Shown: piece after piece, positions 40,582 through 58,100 of the stretch
How the letters are laid out: each line of letters opens with the position of its first letter
Numbering within the stretch: the first letter of the stretch is position 1
Source: Squalus acanthias
Lineage: Eukaryota
NCBI GenBank assembly: GCA_030390025.1
Contig: CM059434.1
Coordinates: forward strand, 107,322,001-107,386,000
Reading direction: 5' to 3'
Length of the DNA: 64,000 nt
Notes under the pieces: generated by a model
Database searches by the model: none
Seen by the model: only the letters and a program-made list of their open reading frames with translations
Told to the model about the DNA's origin: nothing
Translations under genes and position numbers: made by a program

Positions 40582-42216
40582 GTAGGATTACAACAAAGCA
40601 CTCTTAGACTCTATTTGTGCAGTGGCTTAGATCAGTGTTTTTCAGACTGTTCGATGTTTGAAAATACTGACAATTTCCAAAAGCCACCGGTCTACATTTC
40701 CAATAGGTATCATTAAAAGAAATCTACCCAAAAGAAAAATTCCATTAAAGAAAGAAAGAACTTGCATTCATGTAGCGCCTTTCACGACCTCAGGATGATC
40801 CCAAAGGGCTTTATAGCCAATGAAATACTTTTGAAGCGTAGTCACTATTGTGATGTAGGAAGGACGGCCACCAATTTGCACCCAGGAAGCTCCCCTTGTG
40901 GTCACCCTTCCTAATATCTCCTATTTTGGCTTGCCGTCCATTTTTGTCTGATTATGCCTCTAAAACAGCTTGGGACGTTTTTCTACATTAAAGGTGTTCA
41001 CATAAATGCCAGTTGTTGTTGCTGTTGCAAGGTGTGAATGGCCCCAATGCACAGAAGTCCTTAGCTTGGATAGATAACAGTGCTAACAGGTTACAGAAAT
41101 AAAGGAAGAGAACTACAACAGCGACTCACATTTATGTAGCTGCTGCTATGTAATGAAACATGCCAAGGCGCTTTCACAGCAATAATTGACACTGAGCAGG
41201 AAAGAGGGGAGGCGACTGCGGCATGCCCAAAGAGGTGGAGTCGAGGACATTTTTGAAGGTGGGGAGAGAAGATGCAGACTTTTTTGAGGAGAATTCCCAA
41301 GTGCAGAGTCTCTGCCACTAATGGGGGAGTGGCTGGCGGGGCCGGGTGACAGTGTACAAGTCACAAGAGCAGACTTTCTCCCCGAGTTGGAAAAAAATCC
41401 CCAAGTCAGTGAAGATGGCAGTTTCAGGTTCTCAATTGCGACATTGGTTTCTGCACATCACCTGGCATGTGGTTCGTGACATCTCCATCTTATTCCTGCT
41501 GAAGCTGCTCCCATGATGAGCATGCCTGGCAAATGGAACATTAGCATTGTATTTGTTGAGGGAGAGCTACGTGCTCATTTTTACTGCGGTGATACAATTA
41601 GCAAGAAATTCAATTCAACAGAAGTTGTTTCATTGTGTTGCAGCATTTGACAATCCGAGGGAAGAGGTTTGCGAGACACTTTTCATGAAAGATGGTGCCT
41701 CGGTATTAATGTCACAATGCTGATGTGTGCCGTGTGGGATTCGACTGCAGGCGATGTAAAAAAGATAAGGGGTTAGGTAAAATGTTTGTGGCATTTTTTT
41801 TGTTAATATTAAAAATAAGAGGGTGAAATTAGTCTTTGCCAGTGGTACGAAATGAGCTCATAGCGAATCAGTAGCCCGTTTCACACCACCCTTTGAAGTC
41901 AATGGAAAGGAAAGTTGGGCGTGGTGTAGAAGAGGCTGCCGATTCGCTGAGAATCCATTTCACGCTACTGGTGAAGATCAATTTCATTCCCATGAAATCG
42001 AACCAAAAGAAATGACAGTTTTTTCCAAATGAGACTAAAATGGCTGCATAATGGACTATCCTTTGATCAGAATCTTTGCTCATTCAGCCCAGAAATGATG
42101 CACATCCATTCCCCTTGGTTAATATTTTTCACAAAATCATTTTTGATCAAAAGTTATTTCCCTTTCTTGTGTTCACTCTGCTGAATATTAATTTGATGTC
42201 AATGTTTATTTTTTAG

Positions 42217-42329
42217 GCTTTACCATGCGGAGAAGCTCTCCAAGACAAACCTGGTGTTTATACTGGTGGAGAGTAAGCCCACATGTCAGTCCTGTGACTC
42301 AAAGCCTCTTATGCAAGCAGAACAAAAAT
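42217..42329 (+). CDS. CACNA2D1: alpha2delta-1 exon [37 protein letters not shown]
   Basis: ttttag acceptor, U12-type donor gtatcct, 113 nt, phase 2/1. Matches [34 protein letters not shown]. Confidence 0.94.
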
Positions 42330-45228
42330 GTATCCTCTACTGGGCCAATGTTGTACTAAAGGGCTACTTTCCATCACTGAGCACAGTAGTTTGATGGGTG
42401 ATTAGGAATGGTAGTTACAAATGGGACACTAATGCGATTGCAATAGTGATTCTATCACTGCTCAATCTTGTAGAGTCAACTCAGAACAGGAACATGTATG
42501 GTACGTGTTGCACAGTAATAAAAGAGGCGTTGTTAATCACAAATGATAAAAATATTACTTGGTACTCTTGATTTGCTATTGGGATGTCATGGGCTGCAAC
42601 ATCCTCCCCCAGATCAGTTGACACAGTGCATGGGCAATGGACTGGAGATTACAAAGCTAGACTGGAGTTCTATCTTAATACTCTCAGGAAGCACAAGCTG
42701 GGATGTGCTGCCAATCCCATGAGATGCAGGCTCAAAACGATTACTGGAAGTCCTTTTATTAGGTCCATTTTTGTGAAGAGGCAAGACAGTTGGAATATTA
42801 AACTATGGGATTAATAGTAGTAACTGATAATTTTAGTAGTGTGTTTAAAGAAGGCGGAGGCCAAAAATCTGCAACCCTTGTGGTGCACTCCCACAATAAC
42901 TTTGGTGGGGCACAGTTTAAACCAGGCCCTAGATAGGCCACATTCTTGCATGGAAATTCATCTGGGTCTTGTTGGGAGCCTCTGCCCACCTCAAACAAAG
43001 CTAACGGCATAAGGTGGGGTGGAGACTCCCTTCATTAGGAGCTCCCACATCTCCGACCCTCAGAGGGATCTGGTGTAGGGTTGGTTGGATTGTGCCATTA
43101 CTATCAAAAGACGAAAGTGGGGCTCATTTGGGGGTCTAGACTGAGATCGTGCTAGAAGATCTTGACCCTCTTCTGTGGATCAAACCTGATAAATGTGGAG
43201 TCCAGCGACTGTATTTGACATGGCTTTATCCCCAGCATGGCAGACTTTGTGTCTGCAATTTTATGGCCTATTCCCTATCAATCTTGCATTTCTTGAGAGT
43301 TTTTTCCCCACACAAATGGGGAGATGTGACATCTTTATATTCCATTTAGTGTTACATGAGTGGTTTGAGTTCGGGATAACGGCTTCTCATACTAGTAAGG
43401 AATGTCTGTAGTATAAACACAGCACCTTCTAGAGTACTTAACTTAGAGGCTTTAATTAGTTTATGGCTTTTCAATGGCTTTAACTAGCTGAGAGCTTGTT
43501 TTAGCTAACAGTCTTTTCCCAGCATTATGTTCAACAGCTAAATTCCATTTTGTGTGGCCAGCTTTCAAGCTAAAACTCCATTTTAGCCACATTTCAGGCA
43601 ATTCCTCTATGAAGCTTGAAGGCATCTTTTGGGCATTTTATGGAGCACCGTTCCTACAACCCCTTCATCTATTTCAACTTCACTCTTCAAGTTCCATCCT
43701 ACCTGTCAAGTACACATGCCTCCTATTTGTACTTCCAGTATACAATACTTTTACATTTGTCCGTATTGAATTTCACTTGCTATTGAATGGCCCAGGCTGC
43801 CTCGTCTGAGTCATAGCTTGATGTGATCTTCAATAACTACATTTATTAAGGTTACAATTCCAGGGAATCTATGTAGACCAGGAACAGAAGGAGTCCCAGG
43901 TTAGACCCCCTGGGGAGGCAAATCAATACTCGCACCGCTTCCCCACCCCCCCACCCCTACATTGTGATCTAGCTCTTGACTACTCTCTGCTTCCTCTCCT
44001 CTAGTCAGTTACTAATCCATGACTTCCCCTCAATGTCCACCGAGCTCACACTGTTGAGGAGTCTTCCATGCAGTACTTAACAAAGGTCTTATGGAAGTCT
44101 GAGTGTACCGTCTGATGGTTTCCTTATCAATTTGGGATGTCACTTCCTCAAAAGTCTGTGTTTCAGGCAGTATTTACTCTTTTTAGGCTGTCATTTATTA
44201 GGTTATCTTCATACAGGTCATTTTTTTCCTGATTATTGATTCCATTTTCCTATTGTTGAGCAACTACAGATGACCCTTCAGCTTCTAGGTATGGCTCTGT
44301 GGTTGCCAGTAGGGCTTGTGTCACTGTTCTTGGATATTGGAAATACTTTTGCCTCTTTCCAGTTTGTTGGAACTTCCCCAGTATTCACCGATTCCCAGAA
44401 AGTAACAGTCAGTGCTTCAGAAATCTCATCTCTTGTCCTGGTGGTTCAGCCCTTTTGTTTTATTTCGAACCTCTGCTTCACTTATAGTGAAGTCCTGGGT
44501 AACATTTGAGGTGTGTTTCATTTGGACGGAATATATGTCCACGCTGGTAAAAGAAAAAATCCTCCAAGTATTAGTTTGATGACCTGCTCATTCTCCTGTT
44601 CAGCTCCATATGGGTCCCTTCGGGTCTTAAGTTCCTCCTTGACTGCCCTATTGCTGTTATTAGATCCGAAGATTTCGGTTTTTTAGAATTATGTTTTGCA
44701 TTTAGTTCTGTGACCCTCTACAGTTCTTTTCTTGGCACCTCAACCATTTTTTGTAATCTGCTTCTGTAAAGGCCTTTAACTTGGCCCACTGAGCATGCGC
44801 TCCCTTCTTGACACATTCTATAAATCTTATTTTATTCCCAATCTCCTGAATTTTAGCTATAATATGGTGCACAAAGTTGATTACTGGTGATATGCCGGGA
44901 GACTTGGAGAGGCCCCAGGCTACATAAAATAAGTAATAAGTTACAGTTGATCATTCCTGAATGCATTCATTTTGAAACAGAAAGTCTCTGTGGGAATTGC
45001 AGGCAACCCTGCTGCCTTGACCAATTTCCCTTTAACTATAGACCATATAAATCCTCACTAATTGAATTTAAATGTGAAAGAGCGTGCAAAAATACCAACT
45101 CAATTGATTCTCAGTTGACAAAATGATGAATAGCTGGAGAATAATGTAGTGATGTTTTAAAAGTGAACGTTTATGGAATGCATTTTGTTTTCTTTCATAG
45201 TCTGTTTTTCCTTAATTACACTGTGCAG
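42330..45228 (+). other. U12-type (minor spliceosome) GT-AG intron
   Basis: 5' splice site GTATCCTC (consensus RTATCCTT). Branch site TTCCTTAAT at 45208-45216, about 13 nt from the cag acceptor, with no polypyrimidine tract in between. Confidence 0.88.
43700..44830 (-). mobile_element. highly decayed CR1 LINE RT region
   Basis: Reverse strand gives remnants such as YLDF.K.F.KV.H.RLL and WKEAKVFPI.K. Confidence 0.5.
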
Positions 45229-45311
45229 CTGATGGACCTGATCCTTGTCTTTTAGCTCAGAACCCTAGACACAGGAAAGGTCCCGATGTATGCTTTGATT
45301 CTGATGAGCGT
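45229..45311 (+). CDS. CACNA2D1: alpha2delta-1 penultimate exon (S)[27 protein letters not shown]
   Basis: gtgcag/gtaagt, 83 nt, phase 1/0. Matches [24 protein letters not shown]. Confidence 0.96.
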
Positions 45312-45819
45312 GTAAGTATGCAAGGTTTGGACTCAGGAAGAAAATTGAGCAGTAAATGAATATCTTGGAGTTTTGCTGTAGTATGTAGCATCTGGCGAGG
45401 TTGTGTCCAGATAGCAACTTTGTACAAATGTGATACTGCTCTGGGCCATAGTTTCTTTATTTTGATAACATATCATAACTCTTTTGGAATGTTAACATAA
45501 AATTAACTGCAGCTTTCGATATCCTTTCTTCGAATACTCTACTTTCACGCATGAAATCTGGTTAATTGTGACTGAAGTTTGTCCCCAGTGCGTGGAGCCT
45601 TGCTTCTCCTATACACACTCTTTCTATAATACCATAAGGTTGTTCAATATCAGAATGTTCTTCAAGACAGTTTCTCCATAATGGATGGATATATATCTCT
45701 CTGCTGATCTCAAATTTCATGCAATAAGTCTGAGTTAAAAAAATCAGTAGTTGTGTAACCTGGAGCACACTGAAGGCTCTATTGGTAACAACAGGATCTC
45801 AGCTTCTCCTGTATACTAT

Positions 45820-46790
45820 AGAATATTACAGCAAAGAACGTCTGCATGGTCTTTCTTCATATGAACCATCCATTCCAATCCGTCTTCTCTACTATTTCTA
45901 ACACCCTTAATATTTCTCGTTTTCAAGCAACAATCTAATTCCCTTTTAAAGGAGTTAATGGGCTCTGCTCCAATAAGCATTCATGGCTTAGTATAGAGAA
46001 TTCTATATTCTAGCCGTCCTTAGTGTAAAGAATCTTTCTTCTAACCTTCAACAACCCATCACTATTCACCTTCATGATCCTGACGACTTCTGTCATGTCA
46101 CCTTGAACATTCTCAGCTCTAGCAATAAAGTCCCTTCTACTCAGCCTTGCTTCATAACAATAACTCACCATCCTTGCTAACATTTTAGTAAATCTACATT
46201 GCACCTTTTCCATTGCTTTTATGTCCTTCCTTATACAGGAAACTCTCTTTTAACCGGCACCCAAATAACCGGAAATCTCTCTTAACCGGCAAAATTCTTG
46301 AGTAGGTAACCGGGGTTTTCCTTCATCTCTCCTTTAAAAATAACTTTAAAAAAAACCCTGAGGCGTTTGCCTTGTATCGGAGCATGTAGATTGGGAGGGG
46401 ACTGTGCAGCCCGGGTAGGCAGCGGACACGACAGATGGTCAGTTCGTGGTCCCCGGGGAGACGGAGCTCCGAATGCAGGCGCATGTCAGTGTGTACGGGG
46501 CTCTCGTACGTTGGGAGAAAAAACTCTCCATTATCCGGACTTTTTGATTAACCGGCACCACGCCAGTCCCGTCGGTGCCGGTTAATAAAGAGTTTCCTGT
46601 ATAATGGGGTGGCCAAAACTTTATACAATATCCAACTGCAGCTTAACTAAGGTCTTGTACAAGTTCAACATTAACTCCATACATGCCTTGAGGTACAAAA
46701 CCAAGGATTCTGCTTAACCTTTTGTATGGCCTTATCTACTTGAATTACCATCATTAATGACTTGTGTATCTGCACATCAAAGCCTATTTT
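45820..46790 (-). mobile_element. old CR1 3' fragment interrupted by a MITE
   Basis: ORF 46010..46213 MEKVQCRFTKML...YEARL; continues after 46601 as YKTLVKLQLDIV.FWPP. Confidence 0.7.
46236..46599. mobile_element. Tc1/mariner-superfamily (pogo/Tigger-like) MITE
   Basis: 25-bp TIRs caggaaactctcttttaaccggcac / gtgccggttaataaagagtttcctg (23/25 match), TA flanks. Confidence 0.88.
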
Positions 46791-48440
46791 TCCCTTTCTC
46801 CAGTACTTCCAAAGAATATTCTGTTACATGTTATTGGGTAGCATAGCTCCTTAAGACATTCATCTATGGATGTGTTTTTTGGAAAAAATAACATAACGAA
46901 TGATCTGCAAGAGGTGTGTTTAAAAAAAAAAACAAGGCTGTATTCCCCATTTCTAAACTTGAGTTTACTACTCTTGTACTATATTGCACACCATTCTTGG
47001 CTGAAAAGATGATTTAGTAATCGGGTCCCATGACTAAACTGGTGTCGTTTTTACTTAGTGTGAGTTGCCTGACCCTGATCAAAGATGTTTTGCCCTCTGA
47101 TTTCTCCTCTTCCTCGAGCTGGGGAACCACCTTGCTCCCATTCTATGCCTCCACCAATAATGAGGCTGAGATCAGAAGTAACAGTTGTGAACTCTGAACC
47201 TGGCACTCTGCAGCACTGCAGACACATTTATAACTTTCACTGCCAGACTATCAGCAGCTGAATGTTTACCGTTACAGTCCCCTTTAAAGCTGAAGTGGGA
47301 ACACTTTCTGTTCTGTATCTATCTCAAAAAATATAATTAAAAATACATGCTGTACCATTATTGAAATTTTCTTGAATCTTTAGTTTTCACAGAGACCTGG
47401 CACTTTGGGTCTCCTTCCCACCAGAGCAATTCCATGACATCACTAACGAGGGCAATGTATGGGCTCCATTCCTTATAATGAGGTCTGCAGCTAAGAACAG
47501 GCTTATGAACTGATCCAGAAGGTCATGCCTGATGAGAACATATGGTATCAGCTGGGTATGTTACAAACTTTGCCAGTCTCCTTTCTCTCTCTTGACTTCC
47601 CCAATTCCCTGGCATTTGAATTTTTAATTACAATGAACAATTAGCCCTGATCAACTTTGGTAATTCATAATCTTGGAAACTTCTATCAGGTCATCCCGAA
47701 ACCTCCTTCATAAACAGTTTTTTTTAATCCTGCGGGTGGTATGAGGAGTAACAAATGTAGTAACTTTAGGCAATAATTAATTTTCCGAGTTTAGTGATTA
47801 TCCTAAATGGCTTGAGTTTTGTTCTGACTTTTCTGCATTTTACAACACTTGTACGGTGGCTTCCACTCTTATAATTTAAGAATTGCTTGATTGAGTTGCT
47901 GCCTTAAGATAATAGCAACTTTCCTATGTATACTGAGTGGGAATGTCATTGCTAAAGATCCTAAACTAGGTGCATTAAAAGATGGAGTCCATTAATCCAA
48001 TTTGGCCTCATGCTGCCTACATAAACTTTCATCATAACTGCTTGGGGACCTAGTCACAAAAAAATCTTGCATATTATGCATTTGAGATGGTTACACATAC
48101 CATGCCTGCAACTAGCTGAAGATCTGCATATTCCTGATCTCTCATGATGCCAAAAATATCATGTGGTCTCCCCACAAGTCCTTTGCGTGAAAGTACAGTA
48201 GCACTGTTGCTCACAAGCTTGACGTCTTTGCTGATGGATGTGTTATTGTGTGTGTTTTTAATTTGTTAATAGTGGGGTATTTTCTGTTTTGTGATTTACA
48301 CTGTGACTTTCTGCTCTAGGTGGACGCTCACATTAACTCTGCCAGCAGCCAGCCAAATGCATGAACTCATCTTGTTTGTCTCTTTTTTTTTTTGTGTTCC
48401 CTTTCTTTTTTCTTCTTGCTACTTTGCCCGTTGTTAATAG

Positions 48441-48590
48441 GATGAGCCTATATGCACAACAAGTCGTGCCTCTGCCGTGGAGTCAGCTCCTCTCTTCATT
48501 TTACTGCAAGTTTTGATGTGGTGCGGAGGGTCAGTTACTTTCACTGGATTTTGTTCTTTAGTTTCCTTCTTAGGTGTGATATTAACATGA
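48441..48590 (+). CDS. CACNA2D1: candidate alternative terminal exon DEPICTTSRASAVESAPLFILLQVLMWCGGSVTFTGFCSLVSFLGVILT*
   Basis: About 70-nt pyrimidine-rich tract then aatag acceptor. Phase 0 matches the preceding donor. 49 open codons with an acidic start, Cys at position 5 and a hydrophobic tail. No transcript evidence available. Confidence 0.55.
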   Translation, partial: DEPICTTSRASAVESAPLFILLQVLMWCGGSVTFTGFCSLVSFLGVILT

Positions 48591-49859
48591 AATTAACATC
48601 CTACAAATGATTGTGGTCCAGAGCGAACTTATTGTGGTTTGATAATTGCAAAGCAAGTTTTTTTCCAACTACGTTTGTGTTTCCTTTTTGAATTAGATTT
48701 TTTTTTCTTAGAGCTATTAATTTTGAGTTCTTTCCAGAACGCGAGTGTTCGCACATCGTGTATGTATTATTTAATAGTGCATTTGAATTTATTTTCATAG
48801 ACAAAAATCATGCTTAATAGTCTGTCAGTTTGGTAGATAAAATTGAAACATAATTATAGCACATGGAGAGCCATATTAACTACATTTCAGTAAAGGGAAA
48901 TTTAAAAAAAAAATAGATTGACTTAAAAAAATAGTTTTGCAACACTAAGATATACATTTTAATTTCCTGAAATACAAAAATTACAAAATAGATTAAGACA
49001 ATACAAATTTTTGATGGAACTTAACTTTTGACCAGGCTGAGATTTTATAAAGATAAAATTATGTATTTTTTTTAGTTTTATAAGTTTGATATAATGTAGA
49101 TGTTAATCTCTGTATTTCCCCTTCCAAATATTGCCCTTTCCTTCTAAAGCTCTTCTAGTTCCCCATTGGCTGGGTGAGTGTGATGGGCAAGTGGGACTAT
49201 GGACCTGTCTACAGCCCTGCTCCAAACACTTACAGATCCTGTGGTTCAGTCCTGAGTCGATGCTGGTGAGCCAAGCTCATCACCCATGGCAAGTGATCGT
49301 GTAGCTATTTTTTCCATCTGGAATAAAAATCTCCTCACTGTTGCTATATCCTTCTCTTGGGGCCTTCTGGATGTAGAACAGCAAAATCCAGCAAGCATCC
49401 AATTCGTTCCGTGCACACCTGAACTGAAAAGTTACTTTGGGGTTTAGAATTCTGATACACGTGCATATCGCAAAATTGCGCAATTCTGTGTTATGTGCCT
49501 TGGGCATGCACCAGATGCAGGTGCATTGGAACTTTTTACCCCTTAGTTATGTAGTTTAAAACTAAAGTCACAAATTTGAATAAGAACTTAATGCACAATT
49601 ATAAGAGTTGACAAAAGAAATCTGTAGCATTTGAATTTCCAGCATTATATTTTTCTTTTTAAAGTCTTTTGATTTTGCTTATAACAATCTTTTTATCTTA
49701 TGGAGTCCACTGTTTTAAATTGTTGGACACTGTTGAGAGCAAATAGAATGAATGATTTTTTTTTTTAAGATTAGGCAGCACTTCATCACATTTTGTTTAA
49801 CTGTGAAGTGAAACACAATCCCGTGTAACTACCGTTCAGACATCAAGATAGTTTCCATC

Positions 49860-50240
49860 TTACAAATGGGGAAAGTCATTTAGCCCATCTTAATTCATCC
49901 ATCCAGATTGGTGCATCTAATTGTTTCTTAAATGATTCCATGGTTTTTGGCTTCATTATTCTATCTGCAACCGTTCATCATCCTTTGAGTGAAGAACTTC
50001 CTGATATCAGTTCTAAATTTACCTTTTACTTGAATGACTCTGTTGTTTCTTGGCGACCAGAGCTCAAAACAGTATTCAAGCTGTGGTCTGACCAACGCAC
50101 TGTACAGTTTGATCACAATTTCCTATGGCTTATATTCTACTGTTTTTGCTACGTAGCTCAACCATCTGTTGGCTTTGTTGATTGCTGCTCTGCAGTGGTT
50201 GGACATGTTTAGCATTGAGTCTACGGGTCTCTTTCCACTT
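49860..50240 (-). mobile_element. old CR1 3' fragment
   Basis: Reverse strand VRPQLEYCFELWSP-like segment and CR1-type 3' UTR. Confidence 0.6.
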
Positions 50241-53200
50241 CTGAAGTCTGCGTCTTTTCACTTCCTAGCCTAGAGGCCCCAGGACTAAAATTTATTTCAA
50301 TTGTCATACTATTGCTGGATTAAGCGCAACCTACGTTCCCACACTGAATTGCACATTCCAATTTGCCAAGTTCCATGGCCAAACATTCAATTCTGACTGA
50401 CCTTAGACTCTGGTTTACTTACTAATTAGACTTCATGGCCTTAATAGGACCTCATTACCAGCAGAATAATACACTGTGCAATAACACTCCTGTCCTTATA
50501 AAACAACTTACCATCAACTTCCCGGATGGACTTCCATGGAAAGTAAAATCAGGCGGAGTGTAAATCGCGTGGTCAGTCCGATCCCATCAGTTTCCTGCCG
50601 GGGCGGGTTTGGTTAAAATTATCTCCACTATCTTTATTGAAGTATTTAAAACCACAAAGTCTAATTGTTAAGTGAATGGAGCCTGAGGTAAGTCAGAGTT
50701 TAATTGTTCTCTGGCCAGGGGATTTTCCAGATGGGAAGAACTGAAAGTCTGATCATGGCGTTTGGCAGGATTGTTAATGCGGGGATGGGATGCTTGTGAA
50801 GCACTAGGGTGATGAGTTGGTCACGAACAGCTTTTGCTGCTGTTGTTCTGTTGGGTTTGCCTTCTCTCCTCTTCATCTGAAAATAACAGGTCTTGCTGCT
50901 CCTCAGTCTCAAGTGGATGACCACGCTGCAAGCCTAAATTATTGGCTGTAATGGACGGATCCCCCAGACCTGTCCGGGCATCTGAAGTGTTGTTTAAATA
51001 TGCCGACCAGTCCATTCTACGATGGCTCTTGTGCTGCTACGGCTCTGCTTATATCTTATTTCAGTGGGCGAGTGAGGGTGTCATTGGCCAGGTGGTGAGA
51101 GGGTATCCTGTATGCACTGGGTCCTCCTGGCCGAAGTGTGCTGGAATCGACACCTACCACAGTATGGAAGCATCAAGGCACCTCTCGGGAAACCGCGCAA
51201 ACACCTGCATTTACTTACTTGCCAGCTGCACGTTAGGGAATGAAACCTTTTTCAGATGAGGTATGCTGCCCAACTCATGATTACCTGATGGCTACTTAGC
51301 AGTCTATTACTGCCTAGGCTTGGGAAAGCTTGCTGTGGTTGCAAATCCAACCACCCATTCATGGTGGATCCTGCTGCCCATGAGGAAGGAGATCAATGTG
51401 CTGAAGCCTGCAAAAAAGGGTTTTGTGACCTGTTTTATACAGGAGTGCATGGCAGACTGGCTGTGGAAAAATGTAGAGCCACAGTCACCTTCATGGCCAG
51501 CAGCAAGGCATGTCCACCTCTCATTGTTGGCTTCATGTCAAGTTACACAGGACAGTTACAGCCCCTTGGCTGAAATGCAGCCTCAGACATTGCTCCTCAA
51601 TGAATTTTGGTTCTGTACTCTTTGTGTGGTAGTCTTGCCTTTGTGCTGTCCCCATTGACCCCTGCAGCTGCTACTGCTCTTCCTCCTCCCATACAACCAT
51701 GTAGGTGTTGCTAGGAGCATTGCTGTCCTCCAGAATATTCATAGATTGTACGAGACTCCAGAAGTCATCGAATTTGAGAAAATCTCTCTCTCTTCCCCAA
51801 ACCAACACTGTATAAAAGGCCAGGCCTCTTTTCACCTGGACCCACTGATCCAACAAGTTTCAGGTAAGTTCCCCCTTTAAATTATGCACCAAAGGGCCTG
51901 TCTGCTGCCTGTACCGGCCACTTTACTGGCCTGGTCCTGCACTCAGCGATAGTCCTGCTATTTGCCATGAAAATCACATTAGCGTGCTATCTACATTATA
52001 GGACCCCAATTTAGATAATGAACTGCGGCTGCCTGATCAGGACCCGATCCAAAATGGCATATGCAGCATCGCCAATCTAAACAGCGTGGTAAGTGTACCG
52101 ATACCATTTTAAGACTGCTACTGTGCTGTTTATGCCAGATGGGCCAAGTTGAAATCGGCCCCACTGAGTTGCTTTGAGAGAGGAGAAGAAATCAAAAGAA
52201 ATCGTCCTTTCTGATGCCAGTGGACCTTCTGTGTATTTCCCGCATTTTCTCTTTCTACTCTAGATTTCAGATTTCCAACATTCACAGTTTTTCACTTTAT
52301 CTCAAAAAAGTTTTTTTAAATTGTGAAATCAGGGTCAAGGGCTGAGGCCGATCGTGCAGGATGTCATCAAGGCTAGAAATGATAAAAGAGTGCTGTTTAA
52401 TGCATAGGTCAACCCCCGTCTGGAGAAGTGTGTATAATTCTGAACACCAGTTCAAAGGAAGTTACTATTGCTGTTGAGAGGTAGAAAGGTGAGCAGTAAA
52501 GTGTGACTGAAATGGTAATTTCTCCTAGTCTGAGTGTCACAGAAATGGTGATCTGCTCTCTTTCAGAATCTCTTTATTGTAACTGTAGCAAGGCCAGGGT
52601 ACTGCCATTGTTAAAATGGGGGCCAAGGTTGCTGTTTTTAAGTCTTGTATCCTTTAGGTTCAAGAGTCTATAAATGCAGCAAATACACAGACAATTTCTG
52701 GAGCATGGGTACTCGTTTTATAGGGAGTGGCTCACCTCTGTTTATATTATTGCTTGCGGGACAAAATAGTTTGATTCATTCCTCAATGTACGCACTTCTG
52801 CCACTGTGGGAAAGAGGGGGAGCTGTTAGCTGTGAGGGATGTCTCGATGTTGATCACTGATGACATGATGGGCTTCTTCTGGCATAAAGACATTGAGATT
52901 GCTGGTCTTCTCTAGCTTGTATGCTTCAACTAGTTAGCTCCATGTCACTGAAGTGAGAAGTTCCAGGTACCGTATCCCCCAGAAACATGTTGTAATGAAG
53001 CAAGCTTGCCTTGTGGTGGTGGTGGTGGGCTGGCGTGTAGATAAGAGAAATTTGGAATTTCTTGGTGCATGGTCGGAAGGCAAAAAGTGAACATTTTCAG
53101 AGTATTCATGTATATGTTTCAAACAAAGTTAGATTTTAATGGCGTTTCTATCTTCCCAAGCTTAAGTTGTATACCTTTTGAATTAAAGAAAACTGGCCTT

Positions 53201-53790
53201 TCCTTTCATGGCCTTTGTAAAATACGTAGTAAATAGTTAAAAGAAAAAGAAAAAAACTTGCATTTATGCTGCAGCTTTAACTTCTTGGGATGTCACAAAG
53301 CACCTAACAACCAATGAATGAATTTTGAAATGGAGCCACACTGTTCTGCAGGCAATCTTGGCAGCCAGTATGTTCAAACTCTTCTGTCGTTTCTGGCACC
53401 TCGAGTTGCTTCAACCTTGACATAAAGATCCACTCTTGTAAAGCTATTGGGGATCTAGGATTTGAACTTATTGGTTCAAATCTGGGACTGTGATTCCAAG
53501 AGGATTTAAGGTAAATTCAGAGGGGGAAGAAGGTAATGTTATATTCATGCAATGAAAAGCTGCACAGTGCATAATGTGTGCAATAATTCACAGAAATGCT
53601 GGATGTCACCAGTTCCAGAGTGGCACTCCCAAGTGTTTTAAAAACGCATAATGATAAAACCAACACATACATTATCAAAATTGGAAAAGGAAATGTGGTT
53701 AAATGCTGCCTGAGCTTAAGAGGTCAATGGCATCTGCTTGTGCAGAATGTAGCATGGTGACTAACTTTGTTTTTTTTCCCTTGACAACAG

Positions 53791-53907
53791 GAAGATGATT
53801 CTGAGTGTGGCGGTGGCTCTGGTCTGAGCCCATCCTTATGGTCAATGATAGGGATTCAGCTTGTTCTGCTCTGGCTGCTAAGTAGTGCCAGACCTTTTCC
53901 ATCATGA
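53791..53907 (+). CDS. CACNA2D1: alpha2delta-1 canonical terminal coding exon EDDSECGGGSGLSPSLWSMIGIQLVLLWLLSSARPFPS* (GPI-anchor signal)
   Basis: ctaac branch, poly-T tract, aacag acceptor, phase 0. Matches EDYTDCGGVSGLNPSLWYIIGIQFLLLWLVS. TGA at 53905-53907. Confidence 0.96.
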   Translation, partial: EDDSECGGGSGLSPSLWSMIGIQLVLLWLLSSARPFPS

Positions 53908-56900
53908 CCGCAGAGAACGGACACCCATCTCCGCTTTCTAGACCCACCACACTGTAGCCCTGGATTAAACTAGGGAAACTTTTGTCCCCAGGCAGTAGAA
54001 GACTGACCATGTCCATATCCTGGTGTATCACTGTGTGAAAGCTTCATTGTTGACTCTCCATATGAAGAATGGTTAAGGTGCTCCATTGACGAGTTTAAAA
54101 AAAAATGTAACAGTCATACAATGGTAGCAAATTGGATTGTCAGTACTGAAACCTGCCAGGCAACCTATGGGAACGCTAATGCATTTATACAAAGAAACAA
54201 TTCATAAAAAATATCCTAGATTTGCTTATCATCAGGTTCATATTTTGTTTTGCTTTCTTGAATTAAGATGAAGGGTATTCTTTGTTCATGGCTTACATTG
54301 GCTGACTGTGGCTTATTTTAACACCATTTAATTGAGCTAGTAACATACAGGCACGACCAACTGTCCTATTGGTATAAGACACCAGAAAGCTTAAACATTA
54401 CCATGTTGGATACCAACCAGTAGTTGCAACCATTTTAAGAGTTTGAGACACCAAAGCCCACTGCTTATTCTGTGGCTTATGCTATTACATTATCGTTAGC
54501 TATTCTGTTACCAAAGGATGCCTGTTCCCCTCTTCTTCCACCTCATTAAGCCATAACTCTATGCCTGATGCCCTTCATGTTTGCTGAAGCAAATGCATAA
54601 TGATTGTTGTACCCCACACAAGAAATAGTGCTAAGGCTTGTGAATGAAAAAGCTGTCATTGTGGCGATTGAGTTTTGGACACTGATGCTTTTTTTGCATG
54701 AAGATGCTGCTACTGTTTTCTCTTTTTGTTTTAATGTAGGAGTATAGTTAATGTGCAAGGGCGACTGAGTGAACCAAATGTTGTTGATGTGGAATTTAGA
54801 TAATATGATGTAATATAACTGTTTCACTTATAACAACTAAATATTGTCAAACATACCTCTCTCAAAGTGCAGTGAACAGGTTGAAAGGATGGGAATTATA
54901 CTCAAATGCCATTTCAAGATTTAGATTTTATATTTTAAATGGATGGGCTTGAGCCAAGAGCTCCACGTTACTACCATAGCACAATCTACTTCTGTGCAAT
55001 GTCTGTAATATATGAGAAATAGGAGTTGTACAAGTCATTTAATTGAGTTACAGGAAAGTTCCCAAAGTATTTGAAATGCAACAAAGGAAATTTGAATTTA
55101 ATACCAAACAGTTAAAGCTGATGTTTGGTAGACAATTGATTCTACAGCAAAATTATATAACGTAATGCCTGATAATTGATTGATTAAAGGCATGCAATTT
55201 AGGATTTCATATCACAGCTAAGTAGTAAATGTATTTACTAACAAATTGTGATGTGATATTAGGCAACCCAAGGCATTATATGACGACAAAACACAAAAAG
55301 GTGTGCATTATAGTTGAATAGTGCTTTGAGGTAACCACCTTCACTTTATATTTCAGCCTGTCTTAGTGCGCAGCATTTATTGGTTGTGCATAAGTCTTTT
55401 ATTTATTTTTAAGAGAATCATCCTCTGGTCTTGATCATAAATGGATGTAACTCCAAGTATTTAAAATAAATTGGAATGATTGTTCTGTCAACATCAGCCC
55501 TCTGGGGCTAAAGAGAGGGTGGAAATTTTCCTAAAAAACAATTAAAATGACTAAAGAATTTAAACTGCATCAGTAAAAAAAACAAATCAAGATGGCAGCA
55601 GATCATTGCAACTTTTTGGTTGTTTCGGCCATCTAACGGAAGTGCACCATAATGAGTTTGCAAGATCAGTTCAGTATTTCAAAATATGTAAGTAATCAGA
55701 TGTTAATGTGTATGGAAACAGTATTTAAAATGTTTTGGATAAGATGAGGATAGTTTTGCTGTATGGCTGACTGTAATCTTTTTGGGTAAGAGTTTCAATT
55801 GAGAGTCTGTCAGTCATGGTACCAAATTCAGTGGATTCTACAGCTTTTGTATCAGTGACCCTTTTGCCAGCAGGATTTAAATTGTTAGCTTTCATTGATG
55901 CAGTGTCAGATTAGCAGAAGAGTTCATTCATCTCGATTTCTTTCAAAAAAAAGGCCAGAAAAATTGTCCAATGCACTACTGAATATGTAGTGCCCCGTGC
56001 TTGTGACTTAGAGATATGCCATGCAAAAGCACACATCTGATTTGGGGCTTGCCAAAGTGTTGCGGAGGCATGTGACCAATCCATTACCTCACAATCAGGG
56101 TGCCATTCTGCCCTCGTGAGAGTGAGTCCACATTCATGAATTTTTCAGGAATTGAAACACATGGCGAATGCTATCAGTGTTTGGCAGCATCATCACAATG
56201 CAAATATAACACTACAGGTTCATCAGTGGACTACAGATACTATTCTACTTGCGACCTGACCTAGACATCCCAAAGGCCCAGATCACTTGTGGATTAGCAT
56301 GCATAGCTCATGTCTGTCCAGGCAGTATTATCCTTTGTGCGCATATTCAGTTGGTGCTTTTACTTACAGTGTGACACTGATGCAGAATTCACCAGCAAGC
56401 CACCAGTATATCACAAACAGCAGGTACAAATTAAAAAAAACATCCCCACTTTAATATTTGTCTCTCCTCTTTTCAGTCTCCTTGTAACATATACCATTCC
56501 CTGATTGATGGGGCAGACAGGCAGACAGCCTCCTTGCGCTGGTGATACCTCTTTGTAACCACCATTAACAGGCACACATACGCAATCTCAGTTAACTCGC
56601 CCTCCCATTTCCTTTCTACCCCAGTGGAGTTGCGTCTTGCCTCCACATGGGGCTCTCCCTAAGTGTGTACTCTATAAATGTTTAATGCAAGTCTACTCTG
56701 CTGAAATGATTGATGCTAGTGTAAGATCATAGGTGGCATACTCCGATTTAAATGCTGTCATAACATGGCTAACTATCTGTATTCTGGCCAACTTACTGCT
56801 GATAGGGTTTGCAAATGAGATATAAGAGAGAGCATGTGAGAGAAGCTATGTTGTGGCAGTAACTTCACAGCGTACAGCTATGAGCAGCCATGAAATTTAA

Positions 56901-58100
56901 GACCATGCATTTTGCGTTGAAAATTTTGTTCATCAATGAGCTTCTAGTCTGTTTGTTAATCTTGGTGTCACATTTCTGTGATGATGTCATTAATATTTTA
57001 AGAATTTAAAAATAATGCATATTTCACTTGTTATTTTGGAATTTCTCCATATTACCATGTCATTTTAAGGTTGGTTTGTATTTAAATATTGATGAGGAAA
57101 CTTCACCCAAAATGTTAAAACCTGTGGAGAAAAATTCAGACTTCTGTGCTTTTTCCGTTCAATAACTTGCATTGTGTTACTGTAAATCATGTATATTATA
57201 TCGTCCTGAACACTGAGCCAATTTGGTTTGAAGATTCTGGGAAACCAATGTTGCCCACAAGCTTCAAGAATTGAACTGAGCACATTTTTGCAAAAGTATT
57301 TTGCTGCCATCCAGTACGAACATCCTCGGCTCACAAATTCTTATGCACATGTTCATTGCCAAATGGAAATTAACAAAAGATAAAGGAAACAATTAACACT
57401 GTTCATCGCCAACCTAAAGATGTATGGATTTTCCAAAGGAATTGACCCACTTTAGGTTTAGGTTTTACTCATCTTTTGTAGGAAACTTAATAGGGTATAT
57501 TCTGCTAAGTTTCAAAAAGGAGTGGAAATTATAAATCAAGGCTGCTTATCACCCTCCGCCGCACGCAGTTAGTCAATTGGGTAGAATTCTACAGCTTGTT
57601 GGCTGGGGTTGGCCTGTTGATTTAATATAAGGAAATATTAGATTACAGATATATCTGCAAAAAATTACAAGGAGTGGTTTGATTTTTGCTTTTGTCTTAT
57701 TACGTGTTTGAAATGAGTTTGAAGCAATGGGTTGATATGTAAATGTTTTACAAATCTTATTTTTGATAGCTGTGATCCTGCAAAGTTAATTGAATCCAGC
57801 CGAGAGCCTGATGTTAAGGGTCTGAACCAATATGTGCTAAAGATATTGCTTCAGAGCAATTGTAGTGGCTATCACGATTGATGTAATCCTCTGAACTCCG
57901 ATCAGAATGAATGTATAGGTCATTTCAGATATTGTGTAGTCAATCTGTGATGACAAAAGGGTCACTCAATACAGATGTTAAATGAGTTGGGTGCAATGAT
58001 TCTGATTGGTTGTTAATGGTTCAAATTCAGTAAAATAATTATTTTCTTATTCACAGTGTGACCCTTAGTACTGAGAATATATGTTATTCATGTTGTGAGT
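53908..58100 (+). other. putative long 3' UTR of CACNA2D1 (end uncertain)
   Basis: AT-rich, with no repeats I can recognise, unlike the introns. AATAAA at 55465-55470 and another at 59084-59089. Confidence 0.5.

Follow-up and report, generated by a model that had tools for sequence, protein, structure and literature searches.

An ancient alternative C-terminal exon, conserved in CACNA2D1 from sharks to human and likely encoding a second GPI-attachment signal

Introduction

In acetylcholinesterase, with its H, T and R ends, and in NCAM (NCAM-120/140/180), splicing or read-through at the 3' end picks anchored or soluble forms of the protein. Both genes are unrelated to CACNA2D1, and we know of no dual-frame last exon for either. 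The closest worked-out analogue of the event described here is AS5 (exon 24) of neurexin-3, which was shown to confer a GPI anchor; there, as at our locus, a conserved optional exon with several splice sites precedes the last exon and changes anchoring (PMC9275415). Neurexin-3 is an unrelated gene whose default form is transmembrane and whose stop codon lies within the exon (PMC9275415). CACNA2D1, in contrast, has a GPI signal by default, and the stop of its alternative form comes from a shifted frame or from read-through.

CACNA2D1 encodes the calcium-channel subunit alpha2delta-1, to which the drugs gabapentin and pregabalin are directed. Alpha2 and delta are linked by four disulfides (PMC6249638), and the canonical C-terminus is both the GPI signal and a reported NMDA-receptor site (PMC6249638, PMC12303104, PMC5873963); the attachment site is the Cys of a CGG tripeptide (PMC3460456), and a canonical 30-residue C-terminal peptide has been used to disrupt NMDA-receptor binding (PMC5873963). 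The role of this C-terminus is disputed, as a GPI signal that is cut off stands against NMDA-receptor binding or synapse induction (PMC6249638, PMC12303104, PMC12992490, PMC5873963, PMC6168259), and reviews report transmembrane-tail results that conflict with GPI anchoring (PMC7351808, PMC6249638, PMC12992490, PMC12303104).

Splice variation in this gene has been described in regions A, B and C (exons 18a, 19 and 23), which likewise comprise cassettes and alternative acceptors; these lie in alpha2 and keep the frame (PMC3988960), whereas the exon studied here replaces the anchor signal of delta. In human heart, long reads distinguished 10 CACNA2D1 isoforms by end coordinates (PMC12905364). The accessible parts of PMC7351808, PMC6249638, PMC12992490, PMC12303104 and PMC11677996 name no C-terminal variant. 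A literature search that included the peptide string and accession, with subscription papers, bioRxiv supplements and splicing databases outside its scope, found no description of the exon, which is auto-annotated yet apparently unstudied.

Results

The window analysed is a stretch of 64,000 nucleotides of Squalus acanthias DNA, in which 14 exon matches to shark alpha2delta-1 follow in order on the + strand, and CACNA2D1 is thus the host of the candidate exon. The penultimate exon (45229..45311, +) carries the phase-0 donor common to all endings, with RNA joints 42329>45229 in runs X1, X2 and X3 and 45311>53791 in X1 and X2. The coding part of the canonical last exon (53791..53907, +), seen in RNA contigs of X1 and X2, encodes 38 residues with the CGG attachment site and leads into a long 3' UTR (53908..58000, +), which reaches at least 58000, a single X1 contig spanning 53791-58000.

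In the last intron, the initial annotation had described a frame of 49 codons (48441-48590) behind a pyrimidine tract and an AG acceptor, in phase 0 from 45311, and had read it as a candidate alternative last exon providing a second membrane-anchor C-terminus with an early Cys. The frame and its acceptor are exactly as described, and the second, hydrophobic C-terminus belongs to a real exon, the Cys of which is conserved. The tract and main acceptor AG (48370..48440, +) include TAG at 48438-48440; positions -35 to -6 are 83% pyrimidines, and no further AG lies within 87 nt. Two features had been missed, namely a donor at 48529/48530 and a second acceptor at 48320. The acceptor TAG/GAT at 48441 and the donor AGG/GTCAGT (GTCAGT at 48530..48535, +) match the consensus for a cassette exon, and this donor is the sole one scoring at least 7/9 within 48301-48900. 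If it is used, the exon is a frameshifting cassette, and the tails of annotated isoforms fit the junction. The conserved exon core (48441..48529, +) is 89 nt long (29 codons plus 2 nt) and contains Cys5, a predicted GPI attachment site near Ser8 (48462-48464) and a hydrophobic core at residues 18-28; past the donor, the read-through tail of the last-exon form (48530..48590, +) adds 20 codons, the split one included, and then TGA.

The genome search found the region of this exon to be single-copy, with no second copy, and 49100-49600 as a query matched itself alone. High-copy repeats lie elsewhere in the intron, at 45740-46800 and 49480-50570, with RNA-type contig depths of hundreds to thousands. 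A filter for a strong acceptor, an early Cys and a hydrophobic frame gave 1 match in the intron, 1 on the + strand of the window and 1 on its - strand; being fixed after the fact, it is a weak test, and the canonical last exon itself falls below its pyrimidine cut-off. Origin as a tandem duplicate of the canonical last exon was considered and rejected, as the similarity is not significant (BLOSUM shuffles, p = 0.27; block shuffles, p = 0.31; hhalign, 0.8%, with 25/100 shuffles equally good). The Cys-to-Trp spacing is 22 in both exons.

The 49-residue peptide matches six shark and ray CACNA2D1 isoforms (E = 6e-9 to 4e-5, coverage 71-84%), which agree with it as far as the CGG and then diverge from the tail of the 49-codon frame; the sole match in a search of 50% representatives was an unrelated repeat protein. 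Tail-only searches, with their six shark and ray representatives, had suggested an elasmobranch-only exon, an idea dropped once cluster members were read. We therefore give the spread from 296 alpha2delta-1 proteins drawn from the cluster members listed (at most 15 per cluster, so that species counts are minimum values), in which exon inclusion is taken from automatic gene models, not genomes. The exon core is present in 44 of them, 35 as a cassette, 8 as read-through and 1 ending inside the exon (Xenopus laevis X4, with a stop at residue 28); 235 others have canonical ends, and 17 are partial or end otherwise. The taxa number at least 24 and comprise sharks, rays, bowfin, amphibians, reptiles, birds, opossum, bat and human. 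Cassette records come from sharks, rays and skates (24 records from 10 of them), bowfin, two newts, turtle, tegu and opossum, and the eight read-through records are human isoform X2 (XP_011514872.1), one from bat, four from birds and two from toads. No exon-bearing record occurs in the annotations of the 5 Callorhinchus, 6 Latimeria, 5 polypterid and 12 monotreme records or of the rodent representatives (teleosts were unsampled).

The exon core of the window is identical to the human one at 20/29 residues, a higher share than in the constitutive exons on either side (penultimate exon, 16/27; canonical tail, compared with primate, 22/38); for bowfin the figures are 24/29, 17/27 and 28/38. The same exon is present in predicted RefSeq isoforms of human (X2), Scyliorhinus (X8, XP_038667407.1; 27/29 identical) and Amia (X1, XP_066561314.1; 24/29), which differ in that the human model reads through the donor, whereas those of sharks and bowfin splice on in the shifted frame; none of the three has the 48320 form. 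Among 15 distinct cores (the Hemitrygon core, with a one-codon deletion, is omitted), D1, C5, R9, A10, S15, I20, L22, Q23 and W27 are invariant, and position 8 is S in 14 and G in 1. The initial annotation had left open whether such an isoform is annotated, and had proposed a search for the peptide in other vertebrates; the answer is that automatic annotations do contain it, with matches from sharks to human. We conclude that 48441-48529 is a real, ancient alternative C-terminal exon of CACNA2D1, conserved over that range.

The exon has two annotated endings, both of which place the stop in the last exon. In cartilaginous fish, 24/24 exon-bearing records splice the 89-nt cassette on to the canonical last exon, which the exit at 48529 shifts by one base; the shifted frame (53792..53827, +) yields 11 residues and then TGA. 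The shifted-frame tail of the window is identical to that of a catshark isoform at 10/11 residues. Fourteen species had both forms at hand (9 shark, ray or bowfin and 5 tetrapods); in 14/14 of them the cassette form has a final stretch of 11 residues and a stop that agree with the canonical +1 frame, against 0/2000 shuffled tails, and cross-species pairs also fit in 47/90 cases, as expected of close relatives. The shifted-frame stop (53825-53827 in the window) lies at the same place in 15/15 species pairs, where the canonical frame has a Leu codon and then a Ser or Asn codon.

Read-through, by contrast, gives tails that open with SVTF in human, bat and 3/4 bird records. Beyond codon 29 the two endings have unrelated tails, whose length varies between zero (Xenopus laevis X4) and 68 residues; counted after the hydrophobic core, there are no residues in Xenopus, 9-10 in human, 13 (one of them basic) in the cassette forms and 68 in the toad model. 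The proposal of an alternative last exon is matched by annotated read-through in human, bat, birds and toad, but the cartilaginous-fish records are cassettes throughout, and the 20-residue tail past codon 29 is absent from all of them. An internal CGG to which the initial annotation had drawn attention is present at 48522-48530 but is not kept, being replaced by CKG, CSG, CGW or CLG, and is absent outside cartilaginous fish.

Two gene models show related arrangements. Callorhinchus isoform X5 (P0155) leaves out the two exons ahead of the last (window 42215-45311), and its last exon is then translated in the shifted frame known from the cassette forms (53792-53827). The tegu UniRef model P0251 has an unrelated stretch followed by the last two core residues and the shifted-frame tail; it has the look of a faulty assembly of this exon event.

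The RNA-type runs are assembled contigs flagged as probably RNA; such contigs drop rare forms and cannot show RNA ends. Runs X1 and X2, in which the exon sequences do not differ from those of the window, show skipping, their contigs joining 45311 to 53791 with the exon uncovered; in X10, the CACNA2D1 exons are uncovered. Neither 45311>48441 nor 48529>53791 is among the joints listed for the four RNA-type runs, from whose contigs rare forms may drop out. The only contig covering the exon comes from X3, another species: it is 1656 nt long, passes from the penultimate exon's donor to 48320, 121 nt upstream of the 48441 acceptor, continues unspliced through 48441, the donor and the read-through tail, and ends near 48870. 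With the acceptor TAG/GTG used in this contig, the element at 48320..48364 (+) consists of 14 codons and TGA, so that the stop precedes the reading of the exon; its AG and stop are unchanged among the differences listed in X3, X4, X5 and X7. The product is predicted to be unanchored, because the element has no Cys and no hydrophobic stretch. It resembles the engineered anchorless alpha2delta-1 deltaC-term, which likewise lacks the hydrophobic tail and was about 76% secreted and still raised calcium currents (PMC3460456). That construct retains Cys1059 (PMC3460456), whereas the 48320 form would be without that Cys and is known from one RNA contig only.

In the 48320 frame, 48338-48352 of the window reads SASSQ, and Narcine isoform X6 (P0167) ends with CASS and a stop right after the penultimate exon; xASS words occur 3 times in the three + frames of the 8.5-kb intron. 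The resemblance is no more than suggestive; a short unanchored end may arise in Narcine, a ray, through another acceptor close by in this block.

An AATAAA at 49322..49327 (+) had been put forward as the end of the last-exon transcript. It is located there and is the sole AATAAA/ATTAAA in 48200-49500, a candidate poly(A) signal, but nothing in the data supports a 3'-end role. Low-depth X1 and X2 contigs near 49030-49560 mark no 3' end; they are patchy intronic cover of a kind present elsewhere in the intron.

Constraint on the DNA was compared in X3, X4 (X5 is identical to it) and X7; 20/24 of the X3 differences are listed, so the counts of substituted sites are lower bounds. Among the differences listed, 48320-48440 has at least 2 substituted sites, the exon has 5, of which 2 are synonymous and 3 fall in two codons that change, and 48530-48590 has 1, while the 70 nt of the flank 48591-48660 have 0 and the following 199 nt have 28 (Fisher p = 0.0002). 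The exon and the read-through tail are free of indels, the 49-codon frame is intact in X3, X4, X5 and X7, and the tail has one synonymous change in these runs. This is no proof that the tail is coding, because the conserved non-coding flank after it (48591..48660, +) is under equal constraint, the tail being no better conserved than the 70 nt past its stop (p = 0.47). Since both non-coding flanks are constrained, part of the conservation acts at the RNA level. Splicing control elements give a conserved block around an optional exon. A TGCATG at 48358..48363 (+), 78 nt upstream of the exon and unchanged among the differences listed in the four runs, is a candidate splicing motif, which we take to be of the Rbfox type.

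Discussion

We consider it fairly probable that 48441-48529 swaps the canonical C-terminus of alpha2delta-1 for another that is a second GPI-attachment signal. We propose the following: Cys5 would take over the disulfide to alpha2; the chain would be cut and lipid-anchored near Ser8 (Ser-Arg-Ala), with residues 11-17 as spacer and 18-28 as hydrophobic core; and everything downstream would be discarded with the pro-peptide, leaving the tail free to vary. The change to the mature protein would then be confined to some eight residues close to the membrane, and the functional change would lie in the pro-peptide, which would be without the canonical 30-mer, in anchoring efficiency and in the 3' UTR, the last-exon form losing the long one; the nearby 48320 acceptor would add an unanchored form.

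The first 28 residues are common to all forms, with their acidic start, Cys5, Ser8-Arg-Ala, spacer and hydrophobic core at 18-28, and such a constant beginning with a variable far end is likely the pattern of a GPI-attachment signal, to judge from the sequences. A rule scan with a hand-made rule set, which called for small residues at the site and two after it, 17-34 residues from the end, and for a spacer of about 7 residues ahead of a hydrophobic core, placed the attachment site at Ser8/Gly8-Arg-Ala in 8/8 cassette tails, ten residues ahead of the hydrophobic core; this core begins at residue 18 (12 in two rays), with an 11-residue hydropathy of 2.3-2.6, as in the canonical signal. Cys5 is invariant and is likely to stand in for the last-exon Cys; that Cys we take, from the CaV1.1 structure, to be one alpha2-delta disulfide partner. 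Several points count against this reading. Neither inclusion joint is among those listed for the RNA-type runs, the one contig over the exon enters at 48320, and constraint reaches into both non-coding flanks. The cassette forms have a basic residue and 10 more after the hydrophobic core, which is not the simplest GPI signal, and a peptide that would be cut off is strongly conserved, though the canonical signal is conserved too.

The alternative end is without the canonical 30-residue peptide. The conserved second C-terminus is thus a natural variant in which the whole ectodomain is kept and the reported binding peptide is absent; events of this type have precedents in other genes, and finding one in alpha2delta-1 makes the disputed point directly testable.

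The main rival is that the hydrophobic segment is a true type I transmembrane anchor, which would supply the membrane-spanning alpha2delta-1 called for by some studies and in which Cys28 might be acylated; we regard this as rather unlikely. In most cassette forms, 19-21 residues within 10-30 follow one another without a charge, with K or R at 31 in all, Trp27 is invariant and Cys28 nearly so. A GPI anchor in place of the canonical tail abolished synapse induction (PMC6168259), and a type I topology has been argued (PMC3112168). However, the run is cut to 13-16 residues by Glu14 in the Squalus window and by Arg17 in four other shark species, and the K/R at 31 follows of necessity from the codons with which the canonical exon opens. 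Moreover, the Xenopus form ends at residue 28, the human form ends 9 residues past the hydrophobic core with no basic residue, and the 19-residue hydropathy of 1.5-2.0 (2.65 in toad) is near the 1.6-1.7 of the canonical signal. A broader proposal, that jawed vertebrates including humans have an anchor switch in which a single conserved block gives a transmembrane form (48441) and a secreted form (48320) beside the GPI-anchored default, seems to us improbable as well; if true, it would bring the GPI and transmembrane camps together and determine which form is able to bind glutamate receptors.

The locus might also be mainly an RNA-level switch, acting through regulated unproductive splicing, 3' UTR removal or the unanchored form, with the hydrophobic peptide secondary, and to this we give a slim chance. 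The substituted sites in 48320-48440, 48530-48590 and 48591-48660 (2, 1 and 0 among the differences listed) are fewer than the 5 of the exon, and the sole RNA over the exon enters at 48320 and meets a stop after 14 codons. Combined with the 48530 donor, that acceptor would put the stop 165 nt before the last junction, which by the usual rule is a decay target. Yet the frame is open for 28 codons in 44/44 records, in which most changes are conservative, the Cys never varies and the sole deletion is in frame, and both annotated endings have their stop in the last exon.

It is quite unlikely that Squalus acanthias uses the exon mainly as a last exon of 49 codons, with the internal CGG as anchor site and the AATAAA at 49322 as its end, a reading that overlaps with that of a second GPI signal and is not exclusive of it. 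The intact frame with its one synonymous tail change in X3, X4, X5 and X7, the X3 RNA left unspliced through the donor, and the read-through forms annotated in amniotes and toad speak for it, as does the CGG, which passed the rule scan and is followed by a hydrophobic stretch, at a distance of 21 residues from the end. Against this, the form is found in 0/24 exon-bearing cartilaginous-fish records, where the CGG of the cassette form is only 13 residues from the end; the CGG is kept in 0/8 read-through records; the tail is conserved no better than the 70 nt past its stop; and the X3 contig stops near 48870. Finally, a chance open frame within the intron, for which it could be said that two gene-expressing RNA-type runs show skipping alone, is already refuted by conservation, the orthologous exon being present in at least 24 taxa from sharks to human.

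Whichever way the second C-terminus, in our preferred reading a GPI-attachment signal, is held at the membrane, a conserved coding stretch lies in the last intron of the canonical model, and patient variants there would count as intronic.

A further segment of the same intron, 50891-50950 of the window, matches the alternative C-terminus of Pristiophorus isoform X2 (P0052) at 11/14 residues. An AG lies just before it (50889-50890), but the matching frame is not in phase 0 here. Its bin has multi-contig cover in 4/4 RNA-type runs, and the segment is therefore likely an exonised repeat.
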